A DNA stretch of 64,000 bases from a virus (taxonomy: Duplodnaviria; Caudoviricetes). The translations under genes were made by a program, and so were the position numbers. The stretch is taken from IMG/VR virus record IMGVR_UViG_3300018089_000001, positions 32,001-96,000 of that record; one strand, written 5' to 3'. The notes under the pieces were generated by a model. It did not search any database. It was not told where the DNA came from and worked only from the letters and a program-made list of their open reading frames with translations. Positions 3,739 to 32,358 of this stretch are shown here, one piece after another; position 1 is the stretch's first letter, and every line of letters begins with the position of its first letter.

Positions 3739-4094
3739 CAGCCCCCGTACGCGGTCTCAAACGCCCGATCGACCTGCCTCTGGACCTCTGGCGTCACGTC
3801 TGGTTCGGTGAACAGCGACTCCGTCGCGACCCGGGTGTCAGAGACCGGCAGCTTATAGCAGCTCAACATCACGCCCAGCTCATTCCGTTCCACGGAGAAC
3901 GAGGCGGAGGACGCCATCTCCAGGAAGGACTCGAACGGGACGATGATGCAGACCGGTTTCCCGAAATGGAGGTGCTCGATGACCCGCTTCCGCATGGCCT
4001 CGCACGGCTCCCGATACCTGTCACCGACGTACGAGGCGGGCGCGAGCGGGTCCCCTTCAAACCTGATGAAGAAATACGAGTCGATGGTCTTCAC
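3738..4094 (-). CDS. Hypothetical protein
   Basis: ORF track; overlaps with neighbours. Confidence 0.55.
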   Translation of the reverse strand: MKTIDSYFFIRFEGDPLAPASYVGDRYREPCEAMRKRVIEHLHFGKPVCIIVPFESFLEMASSASFSVERNELGVMLSCYKLPVSDTRVATESLFTEPDVTPEVQRQVDRAFETAYGG

Positions 4095-5182
4095 GGGACC
4101 TCGAAGAGTAGGGACCAGCACTCCATCGCGTCACCGAGTCGGCTCCAGTACGCCGCGTGCTCGCCGCCGAACCCCCGGACCGCGGAGGCGACCCTCCGGT
4201 AGCATTCGGTGGGTGTCCGGAGGCCATCGAGTCGCACCGCGTCGATCCTCTCCCAAAACGTTTCGTTCTGTTCGATCCCGTTGGCCTCCTTGCGGAGGTT
4301 CTTGAACGGGTCGGACGCCCGGTCGTGATGGATGTGCGGGGTACCTGTGCTGACGACCCACCCGAGGTGGTCGCAGATCCTCTTTTGGATGATGCCGCAC
4401 CATATGTCCCCCATCCTATCGAACGGAAGGGGCTCGGTGAAGCCCTCGAAGCCCCTCCGCACCGACTTGATCTGCCCCATGAGCAGGTGGTAGCTCAGCG
4501 GGATCGTCTCGCGCCGCCACATCACGTTCATCCCGCAGAAGGGGAAGAATGCCCCGTGCGGGACGATGCGGTTGTCATGGGTGTACGTCTCCGGGACCGG
4601 ATCGACGAGCTGCTGGGGGGCGTCGTAGTCGAGGACGCCCTGCCAGATCCCGTGGTTGACGTGGACCGGCCGCGAGCCGAGGTTCCGGTACGGGACCCCG
4701 CGCGGCCGGACGCTGTTCAGCGTGTTGAACCACCTCGTGCGTTGCAACATCCCCCTATGCAGGAGATCGAGCTGCTCGTAGCCCTTCGCGGGGTAACAGT
4801 CGTCGTCAAGGGTCTGCAGGAAACCGTACCCCTGGCTCCAGGCCCACCAGTAGCCGAAGCTCCTGACGGTGTCCGAGCGGCGGGGAATGATCCACGACCA
4901 AGCGTGCATGTCGATGTCCTCCCAGCAGAAGTGCTGGGCGACGTCGGTCACGGACGGCGTGAAGGTCTTCCGCGGATTGTCCTCGACGAGGATGAGGTCG
5001 ACCCGATCGAGCATCCCGGTGGGTCGCCACTCCGCGACGAACCGCGAGAAGCTCTCCCTCCTGATCGAGGGGACGACGAGGGCCACGCGGTCTCTGTTAG
5101 GACCTGTTAGGCCCTCGTCGTCATCGTCAGGGCCTAGATTCTCTGAGAGATCCTGAGGGAGGAGGGGGTAGTCAGCTTCCAT
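4091..5182 (-). CDS. RGP / UDP-arabinopyranose mutase family protein (GT75)
   Basis: TLDDDC, RGVPY, HGIW..VLDYDAPQQLV, FPFCGMN, DIWCG..KRICDHLG..V.TG.P.I.H.RASDPFKNLRKE match plant reversibly glycosylated polypeptide motifs along the whole length. Confidence 0.85.
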   Translation of the reverse strand: MEADYPLLPQDLSENLGPDDDDEGLTGPNRDRVALVVPSIRRESFSRFVAEWRPTGMLDRVDLILVEDNPRKTFTPSVTDVAQHFCWEDIDMHAWSWIIPRRSDTVRSFGYWWAWSQGYGFLQTLDDDCYPAKGYEQLDLLHRGMLQRTRWFNTLNSVRPRGVPYRNLGSRPVHVNHGIWQGVLDYDAPQQLVDPVPETYTHDNRIVPHGAFFPFCGMNVMWRRETIPLSYHLLMGQIKSVRRGFEGFTEPLPFDRMGDIWCGIIQKRICDHLGWVVSTGTPHIHHDRASDPFKNLRKEANGIEQNETFWERIDAVRLDGLRTPTECYRRVASAVRGFGGEHAAYWSRLGDAMECWSLLFEVP

Positions 5183-5546
5183 TTCGAATCCTCCAGAGCT
5201 CGATTGCCTGGCAGCAGTGGCCCTCCATGCCGAACATGTCGGAGAGGCCGCTGGCCGATCTTATCACGTCGAGCAGCCACGGGTTCTCCCTGATCCACTC
5301 GTCCCAGAGCCAGGAGTATAGCGCGGCGCACTCCGCCTGGTTCGTCACGCCGACTCCGGCGACCCGCTTCGCCTTGGCGGCCCTCCAGTCGAGACCAGTC
5401 GAGCCGTCCTCGAAGACCTTGTACGCCTGGTACGCCTCCTCAATGGAGGCCCCTCCGAGGCACGACGGCCTCGCGTAGAACGCCGAGAGCCGGGTGTCAC
5501 CCCGGCTACTACACTCGAGGTACGGTGGGTCGCCGACGCGGATCAA
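5172..5546 (-). CDS. NADAR/YbiA-like protein (tentative)
   Basis: LSAFY...SIEEAYQAYKVF resembles NADAR FSNF...E..YQA.KF. Confidence 0.4.
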   Translation of the reverse strand: MIRVGDPPYLECSSRGDTRLSAFYARPSCLGGASIEEAYQAYKVFEDGSTGLDWRAAKAKRVAGVGVTNQAECAALYSWLWDEWIRENPWLLDVIRSASGLSDMFGMEGHCCQAIELWRIRNGS

Positions 5547-5662
5547 TCGTCCCCCGAGAGCAGGTCGGCGATCATCGCGACCGGAGACATCACGAAGATG
5601 AACGCCCAGAACAGGACGTGGATGCACCACGGCTCACCACGGAGGTCACCGAAGTCTGCCAT
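5543..5662 (-). CDS. Small membrane protein (39 aa)
   Basis: Manual translation MADFGDLRGEPWCIHVLFWAFIFVMSPVAMIADLLSGDD; overlaps at both ends. Confidence 0.45.
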   Translation of the reverse strand: MADFGDLRGEPWCIHVLFWAFIFVMSPVAMIADLLSGDD

Positions 5663-5877
5663 CAGCAGATCCTCCTGTCACCGGCGGACGGACGGGGGAT
5701 GGGCTTCAGGATGTCCGCCAGGTTCGGCCTGTCGTGGGTCTGTTTCTGGAAGACGAGGGCGAGGTGGTCGTTGACCATGCGGATCTGCGCCGGACTCAGC
5801 GTGATCGCGGTATCGTCGCCGACCATCGACAGCTCGAAGAACCCCTGGAGCCAGTAGCAGAACTGCTCGGGCGTCAC
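5662..5877 (-). CDS. Small phage protein (MTPEQFCYWLQGFFE type)
   Basis: N-terminal motif common in phage hypothetical proteins. Confidence 0.65.
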   Translation of the reverse strand: MTPEQFCYWLQGFFELSMVGDDTAITLSPAQIRMVNDHLALVFQKQTHDRPNLADILKPIPRPSAGDRRIC

Positions 5878-6305
5878 ATGCCCTCCCGGTGGACGAAGTT
5901 ACCGCAGTTCCCGTTGGAGCACTCGACGCGGACGAACCCGACGTACGCGTCCGAGCCGCAGAGCGGGCACCCGTTCCTGTGCGGCCAGAAGTGGTCGTCG
6001 TGGGCCCTCGCCATGACCTCGGTCTCAGGATCGAGTCCGTCCGGGTCCTTGACCGGATATGGGACGGCCGCGATGGGTAGATCGATCTCGACGCAGGGGT
6101 TCACGCCCCCCCACCTCCTGTCGAAATCGAAGAGCAGCGAGGTCGGCAGCGGCATCGGCTGGATGCGCGGCTTAGTGATCTCGAAGATGCCGTCGGTGTA
6201 CGACATGACCTTGGTCCTCTGGTACTGAAGAAAGGGGAGCCTCTTCAGCTCCTCAGCGTACTCGTTCCACAGGGCCTTTACCTTGGCCCACTCGTCTTCG
6301 CCCAT
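5874..6305 (-). CDS. Hypothetical protein with C-terminal Zn ribbon
   Basis: CPLCG...ECSNGNC. Confidence 0.6.
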   Translation of the reverse strand: MGEDEWAKVKALWNEYAEELKRLPFLQYQRTKVMSYTDGIFEITKPRIQPMPLPTSLLFDFDRRWGGVNPCVEIDLPIAAVPYPVKDPDGLDPETEVMARAHDDHFWPHRNGCPLCGSDAYVGFVRVECSNGNCGNFVHREGM

Positions 6306-6315
6306 CCGAGTCCTT

Positions 6316-7863
6316 TCAGATTTCGATGCTGTCGACCGGAATGAAGTAGCTCGCGGCCTGCCTGGCCGAGTGGGCCCACCCCGGCTTCCCGACCACGAAG
6401 CCGTTGGGGTCCTCGAGCTTACGGTGCAGCACCGTGATGTACACGTCGCCCTGGCGGACGGCCGCCCGGACGTGCTCCCAGATGCCAGCGAACGCCGGCG
6501 CCTCGAACTCCATGCCGTCCCGGTCCGTGAGACGGAGCCAGGCCATGGGCCGCCCGTTCTTCTGGGGCCTCTCCTTGATCGACTTGACCAGGAGCGGGGC
6601 TATCAGGACCTCACGGTCCTCGTCCTCGACGAAGGCCGCGTAGCCCGGCTCGCAGAGACCCTCGCCGACGAGGCGGTCGACCTTCGCGTGCCGGTCGTTG
6701 ATGGAGAACGGGGTGCCGCGGAGGTTGAACCCGAGCAGCTCCCGCTCCCGCTCCATCAGCTCGATCGGGTCGTCCTTCGGGCCCCAGATCGCCTCGAGGA
6801 CGGGGGCCACGGCGTCCCGGTTCTTCTTATGGGAGAGCCGCTTGTCGGACCTGAAGGCCTCGTAGCGGAGGCGGAGGGTCGCCACGGACGTCCCGGGGAC
6901 CAGGTCGGTGAAGGCGCCCACGGCCATGAGGGCCTCGACGGACGTCTTCGTCGCCCCCGAGTCGAGCAGGAAGTCGGCGAACGAGGCGTACGGCTGACGG
7001 GCCGCGATCTTCTCGACCGCGGACGGTCCGATCCCCTTCACCGCCGTGAAGGGAAGCCGGATCCCGTTCCCTTCGATCCGAGGGGAGCGGCCCGACAGGT
7101 TCACGTCGACGGGCTTGATCTCGAAGCCCTGGCGGCGGATGTCGTTCACGTACGTCTGCAGGTCGGCCGCCTGGCCCGCGGAGAGCAGCGCGGCGAAGAA
7201 CTCCATCGGATAGTACGTCCGGAGGTACGCGGTCTGCATCGTGACCATGCCGTACGCCTTGGCGTGGGCCCGGTTGAAGCCGTAGGAGCCCCACTTGCCG
7301 AAGGCCTCCCAGAGGTCCTCGGCGGCGGAGCGGGCCATCCCGTTCCCCACGGCGCCCTCGACGACCTTGCCACGTAGCTCGGCGTCCTCCTGCCGGAGGA
7401 ACTCGTCGGACTTGCTCTTGTCCTTCTTGAGGAAGTGCTTGCGGACCCGGTTGGTGTCCTTCCAGGACATCCCGCAGAGCTTCCGGCAGGTCTCCAGGAG
7501 GTGCTCCTGGTAGACGAAGCAGCCGTAGGTGTCCCTCAGGACCTCCTCGAGCAGCGGGTGGTCGTACGTGACGTCCTCAAGGCCGTTCTTCCGCCTCGCG
7601 TACATCTGGTCCATGCCTGAGCCGAGTGGACCCGGACGGTAGAGGGCGCAGACGGCCGCGACGTCGTCGAAGCAGGTCGGCTTGACCTGCTGGAACAGCT
7701 TCATCATGCCCTGGGAGGTGACCGAGAAGATCCCCGTCATGTTCCCCTCCCAGAAGACCGTCCGCATGACCTCCATCGAGTTGAGGTCCATGGTCTTCGG
7801 GTCGATCTCATTGACGACGTCCTGGTAAGAACGTGGGACCCGCTTGATCGATTTGATCCGCAT
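6316..7863 (-). CDS. dnaE: DNA polymerase III alpha subunit, C-terminal half (split gene)
   Basis: ALYRPGPL, TYGCFVYQE, YGFNRAHAKAY, YYPMEFFAALL, VKGIG and C-terminal OB fold. Confidence 0.92.
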   Translation of the reverse strand: MRIKSIKRVPRSYQDVVNEIDPKTMDLNSMEVMRTVFWEGNMTGIFSVTSQGMMKLFQQVKPTCFDDVAAVCALYRPGPLGSGMDQMYARRKNGLEDVTYDHPLLEEVLRDTYGCFVYQEHLLETCRKLCGMSWKDTNRVRKHFLKKDKSKSDEFLRQEDAELRGKVVEGAVGNGMARSAAEDLWEAFGKWGSYGFNRAHAKAYGMVTMQTAYLRTYYPMEFFAALLSAGQAADLQTYVNDIRRQGFEIKPVDVNLSGRSPRIEGNGIRLPFTAVKGIGPSAVEKIAARQPYASFADFLLDSGATKTSVEALMAVGAFTDLVPGTSVATLRLRYEAFRSDKRLSHKKNRDAVAPVLEAIWGPKDDPIELMERERELLGFNLRGTPFSINDRHAKVDRLVGEGLCEPGYAAFVEDEDREVLIAPLLVKSIKERPQKNGRPMAWLRLTDRDGMEFEAPAFAGIWEHVRAAVRQGDVYITVLHRKLEDPNGFVVGKPGWAHSARQAASYFIPVDSIEI

Positions 7864-8099
7864 CAGTGACCCAGAGAGAGTGGGTCGAGGCCCAGTGGAA
7901 TCTCCGGCAGCCCCAACGATCTGAGGCTCTCATTGGCGGTGAGGTGCTCAGCGTAAACCTCCCGGTCTATCTCGGAATCCGGATGGAACCCGTGGCCTTG
8001 GTAGCCGCAACCGAAACACCTGAATAGGCAGACGCCGTCGAGAAAACCCCTCCGGTGCTCCGCGGAGCACCGGGGACAGACAAAGTGGATGTCACTCAT
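7863..8099 (-). CDS. Small Zn-ribbon protein between the dnaE halves
   Basis: CPRC...CFGCG; ATGA overlap-type coupling upstream, TGATG with dnaE-C. Confidence 0.6.
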   Translation of the reverse strand: MSDIHFVCPRCSAEHRRGFLDGVCLFRCFGCGYQGHGFHPDSEIDREVYAEHLTANESLRSLGLPEIPLGLDPLSLGH

Positions 8100-8862
8100 A
8101 CGCGAAACGTCTCCCCCTCGTTGTTCCAGAGACACGGGTGCCACGGGCGCAGGCGGCGATGGCCGCCTCGCTGATATCATAATGCTGACTGGCGAGACGG
8201 ACGGATTCAAAGACAAGGCCATCGTCGAGGCACTTGACACGCTTGACCTTGGAGAGGCGGATGCGATCGCGATGTTCCTGCGTGATCACGCGATTGCTGA
8301 TCCTCTCTTTCGTCTCCTCGGAGTGCTTCTTCCCGTAGAAGGGGTTCTTAGAACCGGACTGGTCGCCCTTCTTCTTGCGGGTCTGTCGTTTTGGAGGGAC
8401 GACGATATCGAGGCTAGTCTTCGCGGTGGACGGATCGGGAGCATCATCAGGGGTTCGCTCGAGAAAACGACGTAGCTGTGATTCACGCATTCTCGCTCGG
8501 GTCTCATCTGAGAGCTTATGGCCGAGCAGTCCGCCGCCTCCATCGGTACAGTTCAAGAGTGCGCATCCCTCGCTTCTCTTTAAGCGAATCCAACGCACCT
8601 CCGCGTCATTCAAGAGGGAATTCGCGAGTTCCCAGTCTTCAGACTGTCCGAGGTTTTCGAGCGTCACCACCCGAGGACTCATTCCGAGTCCTTTCAACTT
8701 TCGAATCCAACAGTAAACAGGATAGTGTGCTTCTGCAACTCTCTTGTTCTGCAGATGCCTGTATGGGCGAACTAAGCCGCTCGCAGATCGTCCGACATAT
8801 CGAACTTCATCGGTTCGCGGATCCACCAGCCCGTATATCAGAAGATTCCAGAATTTCGTCAT
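8092..8862 (-). mobile_element. Free-standing GIY-YIG homing endonuclease (NUMOD3 repeats, NUMOD1-like C-terminus)
   Basis: IYGLVDPRT..VRYVG; LLNCTDGGGG; GHKLSDETRARM, NPFYGKKHSEETKERIS; FESVRLAS...I..CARG; lower GC than flanks. Confidence 0.88.
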
Positions 8863-10852
8863 CTTCAATGAGCTGGTCGACTCTGATCGATCCTCGCTGT
8901 GTTTGCACTCGCTCATATGACAAAAACTTTCGGATTGAACCGTCCTCCATCTCCAGTTCGATCAATGGATGAGTTGCGGCGATCAGTTTGCAGGCTTGAG
9001 AGATGACCTCGAGCGAGGCAAGCGAAAGTATGTCAAACTTCACCAGCCCCATGTTGGAGGCCGACTTGTTCACGATCCCGTCGGTGAACGAGGCCTGGAC
9101 GACCCCCTTGGAGCGGAACACCGACGTCTCGGAGGGCAGGTCGTCGCCGATGACCACGCCCGAGGCGTGGCGCCCGACGTGGTGCTCCCGCCCGTACAGG
9201 CTCCGGACCGCACGCTCCAGCTGGGGGTACTGACGCATGAACGAGTTGAACGTCGGACTGAGGCGGTAGATGTCGTCGAGCTTGATGACGATGGCCGAGC
9301 GGGTCACCCCCTCGTCCTCGCTGTACAGGGCCCGCATCTCCCGCTCGATCTGCGCGTTGACGCGGTTGCAGAGGTTGTGGTCGATGTCGTGGACCCGGCA
9401 GAGGTCCTTCAGGAGGCCCTTGATCTGGTTGGTCCCGTACGTGCTGATGCAGGCGACGTTGTCCTCGCCGAAGTCGCGGCGGAGGATGTCCTTGACCCGG
9501 TCCACGTCCTGGAAGTCGAGGTCGATGTCCGGGGTCTCGACGCGGTCGATGTTGATGAACCGCTCGAACATCAGGTTGTGCTCGATCGGGTCGATGTTCG
9601 TGATCCCGGTGAGGTAGCAGATCAGGCTGCCGGCCGCCGATCCGCGGCCGGGACCGATGAGCATCTCCTTCCGCGCCGCGTCGCAGATGTTCCGGACGAC
9701 GAGGAAGTAGTTGGCGAGCCCCTTCTCCCGGATGACGCCCAGCTCGTAGCTCAGACGCTGGACGTACCGGTCGTCCCGCTCCAGCCCGCGGGACCTCAGT
9801 CCCACGGCCGCGGACCGCATGAGCTCCCTGAACGTGTCCGCGTACGGCAACGACGGGAGCCGCATCCGCGTGTCGGGCTCGAACTGCTCGACCAAGGAGT
9901 CCGCCATGAGCGTGTTATCGAACGCCTGGGCAAGGACGTCCTCCGGAACCTCGGGGTTGTTCAGGCGGAAGCTCTCCCACAGTTCGTCGGCCGACTTGAC
10001 GAAGAGGGAGCGCACGTCGAACCTATAGTCGGGCGGCAGGTTCCCGAGAGTGAGGCCCCCAGCCTTACCCCGATGCGTCAGGAGGAGGTGGAGGATCTGC
10101 TGCGACTGCCAGTCCGCGGGGTCCACATAGTGGCTGTCTTGCGTGACAAGGAGTGGGATCTTCGTCTCGTCGTGGATCTTAATGAGGGCGGAATTCAGTT
10201 CGGCTTGGTACGGCGCCGCGTTGGTCTGCAGCTCAAGGAAAAACCGACCCTGAAAGATCTCGGAGTACTCTTGAGCTAGCTTGACGACTTCATCCCATTC
10301 GCACTCGCCGCGTTTGAACAGCGAATAGCGAGCGCTGATGACACCGCCCATGCATGCTGATGAGGCGACTAGGCCCCTGCTGAGCTCAGCGAGCATCTCC
10401 TTGTCAAGGCGCGGCTTTTGGAAGTAGCCTTCCTTGTGGGCTCGGTACTGGAGCCGATAAAGGTTCGCCAGACCCTCCCTGCTTTGAGCCACCAAGACGA
10501 GATGGCCCTTCCGATAGAGGACCTTCCGCTTCGTCTTATCGAGGGCAGCGCGGTCAAGGTCGAACTCGACGTCCTCGACCGCGGCTTTCTTCTCAAGTGC
10601 CAGCTGCTCCTTGAGGGCTCGCCAGTCCTTGAGGCTATCGATGACGTAGCTCTCCATTCCGAGGAGAGCCCTCACGCCCTGCTTCTTGGCCTCGAGGAAA
10701 GTCCGTGCGTGCGAGTGGCAATGCCCGTGATTCGTGATCGCGAAGGACTTGAGTCCCTTGTCCTTCGCCGCCTTGACAAGCTCTTCAGGAGAACAGACGC
10801 CATCCTGAAAGCTGAAGGCATCGTGCGTATGCAGACTTGCCATCATCCTCAT
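8807..10852 (-). CDS. dnaE: DNA polymerase III alpha subunit, N-terminal half (PHP + palm) with Hint-like tail
   Basis: HTH..FS..DG, AITNHG, GPGRGSAAGSL, FERF, PDIDLDF, GRHASG, GLVKFDIL. Confidence 0.93.
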   Translation of the reverse strand: MRMMASLHTHDAFSFQDGVCSPEELVKAAKDKGLKSFAITNHGHCHSHARTFLEAKKQGVRALLGMESYVIDSLKDWRALKEQLALEKKAAVEDVEFDLDRAALDKTKRKVLYRKGHLVLVAQSREGLANLYRLQYRAHKEGYFQKPRLDKEMLAELSRGLVASSACMGGVISARYSLFKRGECEWDEVVKLAQEYSEIFQGRFFLELQTNAAPYQAELNSALIKIHDETKIPLLVTQDSHYVDPADWQSQQILHLLLTHRGKAGGLTLGNLPPDYRFDVRSLFVKSADELWESFRLNNPEVPEDVLAQAFDNTLMADSLVEQFEPDTRMRLPSLPYADTFRELMRSAAVGLRSRGLERDDRYVQRLSYELGVIREKGLANYFLVVRNICDAARKEMLIGPGRGSAAGSLICYLTGITNIDPIEHNLMFERFINIDRVETPDIDLDFQDVDRVKDILRRDFGEDNVACISTYGTNQIKGLLKDLCRVHDIDHNLCNRVNAQIEREMRALYSEDEGVTRSAIVIKLDDIYRLSPTFNSFMRQYPQLERAVRSLYGREHHVGRHASGVVIGDDLPSETSVFRSKGVVQASFTDGIVNKSASNMGLVKFDILSLASLEVISQACKLIAATHPLIELEMEDGSIRKFLSYERVQTQRGSIRVDQLIEDDEILESSDIRAGGSANR

Positions 10853-10862
10853 CGATGCAACC

Positions 10863-11006
10863 TCATTTCCACCACGGAGGGAGTAGATACCGACAACGGG
10901 CCCACTTCGCCATGCATGACCTATCGCAAAAAATCGTCTTTCCGCGCATCGGCCTTCGCACGATTCCGCCGCATGTCCAACAGAGGGACCGCCAGCCTCT
11001 GCTCAC
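10863..11006 (-). CDS. Small C4 zinc-finger protein (possible homing-endonuclease N-terminal remnant)
   Basis: Manual translation MSRGWRSLCWTCGGIVRRPMRGKTIFCDRSCMAKWARCRYLLPPWWK. Confidence 0.4.
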   Translation of the reverse strand: MSRGWRSLCWTCGGIVRRPMRGKTIFCDRSCMAKWARCRYLLPPWWK

Positions 11007-11458
11007 GGAACGATCTTCGCCACGTTCCATCCTACGGTGTAGGAGTACATCTCGATCGTCGGCTTGCCGTCGATCCGCGTCACGGCCCGCCGACGCTTCT
11101 GATCGATGAACTCCGTCCCGTCCTCCCGGCAGTACACGAACATCACGTAGTCCCGGGACTCCCTATAGACGTCGTCGCAGTAGTACCGGTGGGCCACCCG
11201 CTCCTTGCTCCGTGAGACCCAGACACCGTCCATGCGGCGCCCAGTGATCGCCTCCCTGAGGACGTACAACCCCCGTGCCCCCTCGACCCTCTCGAAATGA
11301 CGTCGGAAGATGTGCCCGAGGTTCATGTGGTAGTGGTGGTCGGATCGGGGGATGCCCGTGGCCATGCGGTACCTCGCGGCCGCCTCGCCCCAGCTGATCA
11401 CGCCGCCCGGCTGGAGACGAGCGAACCGCAGGATGCTAGCCGTCGCGCCGCGTTTCAT
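11003..11458 (-). CDS. Hypothetical protein (possible winged-helix N-terminus)
   Basis: ORF track; apparently leaderless behind an extended -10. Confidence 0.55.
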   Translation of the reverse strand: MKRGATASILRFARLQPGGVISWGEAAARYRMATGIPRSDHHYHMNLGHIFRRHFERVEGARGLYVLREAITGRRMDGVWVSRSKERVAHRYYCDDVYRESRDYVMFVYCREDGTEFIDQKRRRAVTRIDGKPTIEMYSYTVGWNVAKIVP

Positions 11459-11464
11459 CAGGAA

Positions 11465-11473
11465 ATCCTACCA
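11465..11473 (-). promoter_or_regulatory. Extended -10 promoter (TGGTAGGAT), ATG 6 nt downstream
   Basis: TGnTAnnAT match; same geometry at 18147. Confidence 0.4.
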
Positions 11474-11486
11474 CGTGATGGGGTTG

Positions 11487-11681
11487 TCAGTTGAGCGACG
11501 AGTCGTCCCGACGGGCCTCAGCGAGAGCGAGAGCCCTCCTCCTGATCCAGGACAGGAAGGAGACCTGCAGGTGCGCGGGGATCTCGTCAGCGAACCTACT
11601 GAGGTCAGAGAGCGTGGGGGCGGCGGCCATCATCCGAAAGTACTTCTCGATCAGCTCCGCCAGGCTCACTTGGCCCTCCAC
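11487..11681 (-). CDS. Hypothetical protein
   Basis: ORF track. Confidence 0.45.
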   Translation of the reverse strand: MEGQVSLAELIEKYFRMMAAAPTLSDLSRFADEIPAHLQVSFLSWIRRRALALAEARRDDSSLN

Positions 11682-31761: not shown

Positions 31762-32358
31762 TCAGCGGATTACGCCGGGTGTGGCGTGCTTCCGTAGATA
31801 TTCCTGGGCAGCCTCATGCCATCCCCCAGGTATCTCCAAGCACCCAATGCCCCAATTGCATCGGATGCAAAGTAAGCCCCTGGTTTTGCCTGTCTCATGA
31901 TTGTGATCGACAACCTGAGGTTCGTTCAAGCAACCGACAACGGCGCAAGTGCCTCCCTGATCTTTCAAAATCCTATCCCACTCGCGTCGGGAGACTCCGT
32001 ATTTGGCAAGCCGTCCGCGGCTGATATCATCGGGCACACACGTTAGACACCAACGCTGCGTGTTTGAAGTGGGACGAAAAATCTCAGCACAGTGCTCGCA
32101 ACGAAGTTCAGAAAAGATTCGACACGCGCGTTTGCGGCCGAGCGAGACCAGAGTTTGCTCACGCACCCTAAACGCTTCGGTGGGCGCGAAGGTCCGATTC
32201 ATGAAATTCTTCATTTCATGGGGTGTGACCTCGATCCCGGCGCGCGCAGCGAACATCTGCAATTCAGTCGCCGATTTCCCTGCGCAGTACAATCTCTCGA
32301 GGTCAGGCTGGATCTCGCTCAGTCGATTTCTGCTTGCTTTTCTTGAAGTGTCGTCCAA
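31762..32358 (-). mobile_element. Endonuclease VII-family homing-type endonuclease
   Basis: KYGVS..EW......QGGTCAV, VVDHNH.TGKTRGLLC..CN.GIG; lower GC. Confidence 0.82.

Follow-up and report, generated by a model that had tools for sequence, protein, structure and literature searches.

How does a phage keep its replicative DNA polymerase working once the gene that encodes it has been cut in two? The question is raised by a 64,000-nucleotide stretch of viral DNA (hereafter, the window), which covers positions 32,001 to 96,000 of the IMG/VR virus record IMGVR_UViG_3300018089_000001, a 185-kb record that is about 91 per cent complete. In the window, dnaE is split into two genes, DnaE-N and DnaE-C, which are separated by a homing endonuclease gene and a Zn-ribbon open reading frame (ORF). 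DnaE-N ends in a C-terminal tail, and DnaE-C begins with a short N-terminal tag (N-tag). From sequence comparisons and structure models, we consider it likely that these two tags derive from an intein and dock the two DnaE halves without splicing, although both the docking and its need for polymerase activity are what we infer.

The four ORFs (DnaE-N, endonuclease, Zn-ribbon, and DnaE-C) follow one another on the minus strand and overlap, as seen in the ORF listing and by reading the sequence (Table 1). The endonuclease start overlaps the coding end of the tail by 56 nucleotides (nt) in a different frame, the start of the Zn-ribbon ORF overlaps the endonuclease stop by 8 nt, and the TGA of the Zn-ribbon ORF overlaps the ATG of DnaE-C (TGATG, with the A in common). 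We regard the ORFs of the split dnaE as translationally coupled, and for the downstream genes such coupling is probable. A protein search found more than 100 unsplit relatives, which are 1131–1135 amino acids (aa) long and up to 82 per cent identical. In BLASTP alignments to three of them (P0003, P0006, and P0017; 76–82 per cent identical), DnaE-N residues 1–625/626 correspond to residues 1–622/625 of the unsplit proteins, and DnaE-C residues 8–515 (12–515 for P0003) correspond to residues 624/630 to the end. Because the N and C alignments abut there, we place the break after the LIAA motif, 18 residues past KFDIL. Relative to the unsplit proteins, the split halves are longer only by a tail of 55 aa and an N-tag of 7 aa, both absent from the unsplit forms, which upholds the claim of an initial annotation of this locus that the tail is not native to DnaE; by these alignments, no native DnaE residue is lost at the break. 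DnaE-C matches solved structures of Pol III alpha, with its residue 40 at about Escherichia coli residue 603, and this offset puts the break at about residue 570 of E. coli Pol III alpha, which we take to be near the palm–fingers boundary. A 197-aa fragment compared with solved structures to map the break gave no match. The GenBank phage collection contained no close relative, with only local DNA matches of 66–73 per cent to actinophage dnaE. Viral contigs searched for related loci with DnaE-N yielded a single distant locus, L004, which was left out of the comparisons.

Where does the tail come from? Split N halves in lineages whose DnaE is 50–82 per cent identical carry a homologous tail, and an alignment of seven tails has seven invariant columns. 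A profile built from the tails and compared with all PDB sequences gave one significant match, to residues 62–105 of the NrdJ-1 split intein (E = 1.4e-4 with six tails and 1.5e-5 with seven). This segment is the distal half of the NrdJ-1 N fragment and ends at the natural split site; the next intein in the same search was gp41-1, with an E-value of 0.06. The homology emerged only in this profile search against PDB sequences: scanned singly against Pfam, the tails matched no intein family and gave only chance matches with E-values above 0.1. A canonical split intein of a related phage DnaE (locus L011) is located 40 residues downstream of the break studied here, and its distal N half and the start of its C fragment resemble the tail and the N-tag. 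Aligned to the canonical N-intein of L011 with hhalign, the tail profile matched over 21 columns with a probability of 46 per cent and an E-value of 2e-4, which is supportive but weak. We conclude from these comparisons that the tail is, by descent, a piece of a split intein. Cys1 and T-x-D-H are both present in the intein of L011 (L011:733-1734 and L011:1718-1822), whose C fragment terminates in HN, with Cys as the next residue. Beyond the N fragment, the same chain continues for about 235 aa in a C-terminal extension that contains a Zn ribbon and a nuclease-like domain. The two L011 halves overlap directly, with no free-standing endonuclease gene.

On the other side of the break, the motif M-K/R-I/V-x-x-I/V starts 11 DnaE-C halves that are 42–70 per cent identical to that of the window, and it is followed by a linker of variable length and sequence and then by native DnaE. 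A conserved tag followed by a variable linker is the pattern expected for a tag on a flexible tether. The tags described in the initial annotation for a single locus are therefore found on homologues too: the tail on split DnaE, and the N-tag motif on these 11 halves.

The predicted fold of the two tags was examined in locus L010, where the DnaE halves are 57 nt apart, in frame, and separated by two TGA codons. The modelled chain consisted of the tail, the 21-aa natural spacer (with TGA read as Gly, table 25), and the N-tag, and the tails and N-tags were supplied to AlphaFold2 as unpaired alignment rows. The model (predicted local distance difference test [pLDDT] score of 73) has five strands, four in the tail and one in the N-tag. 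When it was compared with the PDB using Foldseek, the best 50 matches were all inteins or Hedgehog Hint domains. In an exhaustive comparison with 48,161 representative chains, 26 Hint domains came first, ahead of any other fold, with Z scores of 7.6 to 3.8. The model aligns to residues 55–128 of NrdJ-1, 39–104 of gp41-1, and 52–114 of Npu DnaE, and these ranges imply that both the distal N half and the first C-fragment strand are represented in it; the modelled N-tag strand superposes on the first C-intein strand of the same three inteins. Modelled alone, the tail of the window has four strands and only Hint matches, including residues 48–99 of the Npu N fragment. The initial annotation had likened the tail to the distal half of an N-intein and the start of DnaE-C to the first strand of a C-intein. 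Both likenesses hold, the former in the NrdJ-1 match and in models that match only Hint folds, and the latter in the conserved motif and the superposed strand.

Could the tags still splice? The conserved core of the tail starts 4–8 residues past the native LIAA and has no conserved Cys, Ser, or Thr, so that block A with its Cys/Ser1 is absent, as is the N-terminal intein lobe (about 55 aa in L011). Block B is absent as well: at the positions where NrdJ-1 and L011 have T-x-D-H, the seven tails are variable, with no conserved Thr or His of the T-x-x-H motif. On the C side, blocks F and G and the His-Asn, that is, the last approximately 28 residues of the C fragment, are absent; the N-tag has 6–8 residues and no Asn, and the residue after it is variable, leaving no conserved +1 nucleophile. 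A canonical C fragment ending in HN and followed by Cys is present at another site in P0136 and P0140. The absence of a convincing block A, TxxH, block F, and terminal His-Asn, which had been pointed out for the window, thus extends across the seven tails and the N-tags. RNA splicing, which would contradict a non-splicing clasp, finds no support either: an Rfam scan of window positions 5500–11500 and of positions 1100–1700 of the minimal locus L010, with E-values up to 10, yielded no intron and only chance snoRNA-like matches. No group I ribozyme core was found, the interval between the dnaE halves is filled by overlapping ORFs, and in the minimal form, with its 57-nt spacer, the flanks are translated and under selection at the protein level. 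Judging from the residues present, the halves cannot be ligated by intein chemistry, and the two polypeptides should stay separate.

Substitutions in the tail are concentrated at third codon positions. Between the window and L007, there are 13, 4, and 26 substitutions at codon positions 1, 2, and 3, and between the window and L005, there are 19, 8, and 29. By this measure, the tags are under purifying selection, except that the last 14 aa of the tail are a variable read-out that overlaps the endonuclease start and is plainly unconstrained. What lies between the DnaE halves differs among loci. An I-TevI-like gene followed by a 209-nt stretch without a called gene separates them in L005, and an I-TevI-like gene is also present between the halves in L013 and in the contigs of P0070 and P0144. 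In L007 and L009, there are unrelated ORFs between the halves, and in L006/L010, there is only a 57-nt spacer with AGGAG. Because the tags are kept where the endonuclease has been replaced (L007 and L009) or lost (L006/L010), they outlive it. A homologous ORF with no assigned function and no PHROG match is located between the halves, on the opposite strand, in both L007 (3680-4207, minus strand) and L009 (2163-2498, minus strand), neither of which has the I-TevI-like gene.

The tags are not confined to this site in DnaE. The tail profile, compared with 1.84 billion representative proteins, gave 375 matches at E-values up to 0.001. Of the best 150, most come from the C-terminal ends of N fragments of ordinary split inteins, in which block A and T-x-x-H are present, and about 30 are truncated tails like that of the window. 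The truncated tails sit directly on native UvsW-like helicases, RNA ligases, PolA, radical-SAM enzymes, a ribonucleotide reductase (RNR) fragment, and a second site in DnaE. At two loci for which the DNA was checked, both tags are present: PolA-N with a tail is followed by a GIY-YIG gene and by PolA-C starting with MKLKKI, and UvsW-N with a tail is followed by an HNH gene and by UvsW-C starting with MKINNI. The net charge of the tails ranges from −1 to −6, and that of the N-tags from 0 to +5. A six-frame scan of the phage's own 185-kb genome with the tail profile detected no second tail.

Three further observations concern individual tails. The DnaE tail of L009 (2012-2191) and the UvsW tail of L015 (1039-1797) have in common an extra segment after the acidic end, with a D-D-x-W-L-T motif, and this common segment suggests that one cassette variant moved between dnaE and uvsW. 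In L014 (6236-6466), the last part of a 76-aa ORF between the PolA halves resembles another tail of this kind, here standing alone. P0299, P0306, and P0384 are N halves of P-loop proteins of the DnaB/gp41-like kind; in each, a Cys comes after the P-loop Lys, and a stretch of about 16 residues then leads to a tail of the truncated type that lacks T-x-x-H. Judging from their sequences, these proteins could represent an intermediate that keeps Cys1 and the first strand and has lost the rest of the N lobe.

Is the cassette foreign to the gene in which it sits? The G + C content at third codon positions (GC3) is 0.86 in native DnaE-N and 0.95 in native DnaE-C, compared with 0.45, 0.61, and 0.72 for the tail, the endonuclease gene, and the Zn-ribbon ORF, respectively. 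Because of this difference, we conclude that the cassette is foreign to dnaE. GC3 equals 1.0 in DnaE-N up to about residue 605 and then falls to 0.3–0.7 in a trough (window 9037–7803) that takes in the cassette and about 20 native dnaE codons on each side. From its extent, the trough looks like a co-conversion tract, as expected for flanks during homing, and in a phage of high GC such as this one, it may indicate that the insertion took place fairly recently. In a DnaE tree of the N-terminal cores of the best matches, the seven split forms occupy at least five separate places among 102 unsplit relatives. In a tree of the tails, the truncated tails of different host genes cluster apart from complete inteins, with seven label changes versus about 32 in shuffles; the labels partly depend on residues inside the 54 aligned columns, and the clustering is a hint only.

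The initial annotation had attributed the split to a GIY-YIG gene and a Zn-ribbon gene. The split itself, an I-TevI-like gene, and a Zn-ribbon ORF all stand, whereas the GIY-YIG catalytic domain is recognizable only as motifs seen by eye in an alignment, with no match to Pfam PF01541 and PDB GIY-YIG profile matches of only E = 0.1 to 0.3. The DNA-binding part of the endonuclease is of the I-TevI type, with NUMOD3 (Pfam E = 6.7e-10) and a match to I-TevI 1i3j, for which the E-value was 5.5e-5 when one sequence served as the query and 5.6e-7 when a profile did. The protein also matches PHROG homing endonuclease families and is conserved in L005 (76 per cent) and L013 (45 per cent). The Zn-ribbon ORF has only weak Zn-ribbon matches in Pfam and no match in PHROG. 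Because it is also absent from the other loci, we do not count it as part of the module, of which, on sequence grounds, it is not a constant member.

Table 1. Coordinates, in the window, of the split dnaE and the cassette that interrupts it.
Feature	Position	Strand	Evidence or remark
DnaE-N, whole ORF	10852..8807	-	681 aa; Pfam PHP and DNA_pol3_alpha
DnaE-N, native residues 1-626, comprising PHP and the palm (catalytic Asp motif) and ending at LIAA	8975..10852	-	Pfam; alignment to unsplit relatives
DnaE-N C-terminal tail, 55 aa	8810..8974	-	NrdJ-1 profile match, model, codon-position bias
Conserved 38-aa core of the tail, equivalent to the distal half of the N fragment of a split intein but lacking block B	8962..8849	-	
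Free-standing homing endonuclease gene, I-TevI-like (GIY-YIG type)	8862..8092; alternative ATG 8916	-	NUMOD3, 1i3j, PHROG
Zn-ribbon ORF	8240..7863; likely start ATG 8099, giving 78 aa (7863..8099)	-	CxxC...CxxC
DnaE-C, whole ORF	7863..6316	-	515 aa; Pfam DNA_pol3_finger and HHH_6
DnaE-C N-tag MRIKSIK (7 aa), putative counterpart of the first C-intein strand	7843..7863	-	Conservation, model
DnaE-C native part (fingers, HhH)	6316..7842	-	Pfam; residues 8-515 align to unsplit relatives

Among the neighbouring genes, an RGP gene (PF03214, GT75-type) is found shortly downstream of dnaE in all related loci examined. A 363-aa ORF is located at window positions 4091-5182. Two adjacent tRNA genes were detected by ARAGORN on the minus strand at window positions 43144-43313, and one of them encodes a tRNA-Asn with the unusual anticodon ATT.

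How might the tags keep the polymerase working? In the mechanism that we propose, a mobile endonuclease cassette inserted into the phage dnaE at the palm–fingers boundary and brought with it two coding pieces of a split intein. The first piece, the distal N half (about 40 aa, acidic), would have become the end of DnaE-N, and the second, a basic segment of about 7 aa that was the opening strand of the C fragment, the start of DnaE-C. The acidic tail and the basic N-tag would dock through charge attraction and strand complementation to form part of a Hint fold, which would be the same contact that begins the assembly of a true split intein. In the capture-and-collapse model of Npu DnaE assembly, the first electrostatic contact involves the later half of the N fragment and the beginning of the C fragment, and the pieces retained here correspond to these regions of first contact. 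In true inteins, this capture leads to full Hint folding and splicing, whereas here the contact would be the end point. Docking would tether residue 626 of the DnaE-N chain to residue 8 of the DnaE-C chain and allow palm and fingers to assemble into an active polymerase without RNA or protein splicing. The cassette would thus carry its own antidote, in the form of two split-intein fragments that still recognize each other.

The arrangement resembles two known kinds of fragmented phage genes. In fractured genes (Dassa et al. 2009; PMC2677866), the halves of a split intein flank a free-standing GIY-YIG or Vsr-like endonuclease gene, and the inteins have all six motifs and the five catalytic residues and trans-splice. 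Like these, the locus in the window consists of an enzyme half with an N piece, an endonuclease gene, and a C piece with an enzyme half; phage replication genes, DnaE included, are affected in both, and, as in split inteins of this type (NrdJ-1 and gp41-1), the N piece is acidic and the C piece is basic. A conserved enzyme gene is broken here with an endonuclease gene in between, but complete and competent intein halves are missing. The intein has lost about 55 residues at its N-terminal end and about 28 at its C-terminal end, and with them every catalytic residue. The resemblance to a Hint domain in sequence and fold is only partial.

The second parallel is with genes reassembled by tails. 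In the ‘genes in pieces’ arrangement of Aeh1, nrdA-a/mobE/nrdA-b, tails reassemble an endonuclease-split gene (Friedrich 2007; Crona et al. 2011; PMC3045599), and in T4-like topoisomerase genes (T4 gp39/gp60), the MobA element is accompanied by tails that extend the C and N termini (Manning and Atkins, bioRxiv 10.1101/2022.08.31.505936). The authors of both the Aeh1 (PMC3045599) and the MobA (10.1101/2022.08.31.505936) work have proposed such tails as a general strategy. As in Aeh1 NrdA and MobA, an essential phage replication gene is split in the window by a free-standing homing endonuclease, with neither RNA nor protein splicing, and the two cut ends bear tails of opposite charge that unsplit homologues do not have and that persist once the endonuclease is gone. 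That the tails came with the insertion is supported by the GC3 of the tail and the cassette, which is far below that of the host gene. There are also differences. The Aeh1 and MobA tails have no recognized ancestry, whereas the DnaE tail is demonstrably a split-intein piece; the same tag pair serves several host genes; the charge polarity is reversed relative to Aeh1, whose C-tail is basic; and the endonuclease is I-TevI-like rather than HNH, as in MobE/MobA. A degenerate intein was mentioned as one possible origin of the tails, as speculation only, by Crona et al. (2011; PMC3045599). A search of a limited literature collection found no paper showing intein-derived, non-splicing tails. The split dnaE is a variation on the known theme of tails that reassemble endonuclease-split genes, set apart by the intein origin of the tail.

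Several points weigh against docking of the halves by the tags. The docking was modelled in a single chain joined by a read-through linker that is artificial, and the alignment behind the model was shallow and unpaired; the strand pairing was judged by superposition and not by contacts; and for small beta domains, Z scores of 5 to 7.6 rank as middling. The N-tag, being short and rich in Lys, could partly reflect translation-start preferences, which makes its motif weaker evidence than the tail. Lastly, in Aeh1 NrdA, the one precedent that has been tested, the tails are essential for activity but dispensable for heterodimer formation (PMC3045599). By analogy with that system, a role beyond simple tethering is possible, and ‘clasp’ may be too narrow a word.

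The tags might then be functional without being a simple clasp: the native interface would suffice to hold the halves together, and the tags would repair the geometry of the cut, aid folding or solubility, or contact another part of the replisome. In Aeh1 NrdA, heterodimers still formed when the tails were deleted, but activity and higher-order assembly were lost (PMC3045599), and the conservation and purifying selection seen here indicate a function without saying which. Against this explanation, which we consider unlikely, the same tag pair occurs on unrelated proteins (DnaE at two sites, PolA, and UvsW), which argues for a host-independent role such as mutual docking, and the modelled fold sets the N-tag against the tail as in split inteins.

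Alternatively, the tags may be inert, left over from a split intein that has decayed or from the DNA of the cassette, and may be tolerated and persist only by hitch-hiking with the cassette. The tail does evolve faster than the DnaE core (38–40 versus 16–25 per cent amino-acid differences), and its unconstrained last 14 residues are what a relic might look like. Yet the substitutions are biased toward third codon positions, columns are invariant across lineages whose DnaE is only about 50 per cent identical, the frames stay intact after endonuclease loss or replacement, and the tags recur on other genes always as a pair; we therefore hold it improbable that they are inert. Covalent joining of the halves after all, through an undetected intron (spliced in cis or in trans) or unconventional protein splicing, is scarcely credible, although the initial annotation allowed for it and the Rfam group I model can miss divergent phage introns. 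No RNA family matched in the window interval (which is full of coupled, overlapping ORFs) or in L010, and the tail is both translated and similar to an intein. Neither junction has a conserved Cys, Ser, or Thr, and a terminal Asn, an N lobe, and blocks F and G are all missing.

Docking by intein-derived tags thus remains the reading that we prefer. The initial annotation had proposed a minimal intein-derived, non-splicing clasp and, possibly, an undescribed intermediate state. The absence of the segment from unsplit homologues, the intein origin, the modelled Hint-like fold, the lack of splicing residues and of an intron, and the conservation of the tags and their independence of the endonuclease agree with the first part of that proposal, and each computational test by which it might have failed turned out in its favour. 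The second part is not favoured, because several genes that are unrelated to one another carry the truncated module, which groups separately from complete split inteins; from the sequences compared, the tags look like a derived mobile module rather than a decay stage of a dnaE intein. Going one step further, the half-Hint pair may be a self-standing docking module, indifferent to the type of endonuclease, that moves between DnaE, PolA, UvsW, RNA ligase, RNR, and radical-SAM genes and represents the ‘capture’ contact of split inteins in isolation, a proposition for which we see the chances as roughly even. If true, it would provide a third way, beside introns and inteins, to neutralize insertions in essential genes, as well as a ready-made family of small natural heterodimerization tags. 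A natural pair of 40 and 7 aa that associates without reacting could itself serve as an orthogonal protein-assembly tag.

For annotation, the locus carries a warning that such gene halves are not pseudogenes. If the tags dock, they would give a concrete answer to the degenerate-intein speculation of Crona et al. (2011), and one could see in the sequence how a split intein turned into an enzyme of two subunits that are joined non-covalently. The split dnaE widens the known ways in which essential phage genes survive fragmentation, and, should docking hold, it would be a case in which the debris of a parasite is reused to keep the host gene working.

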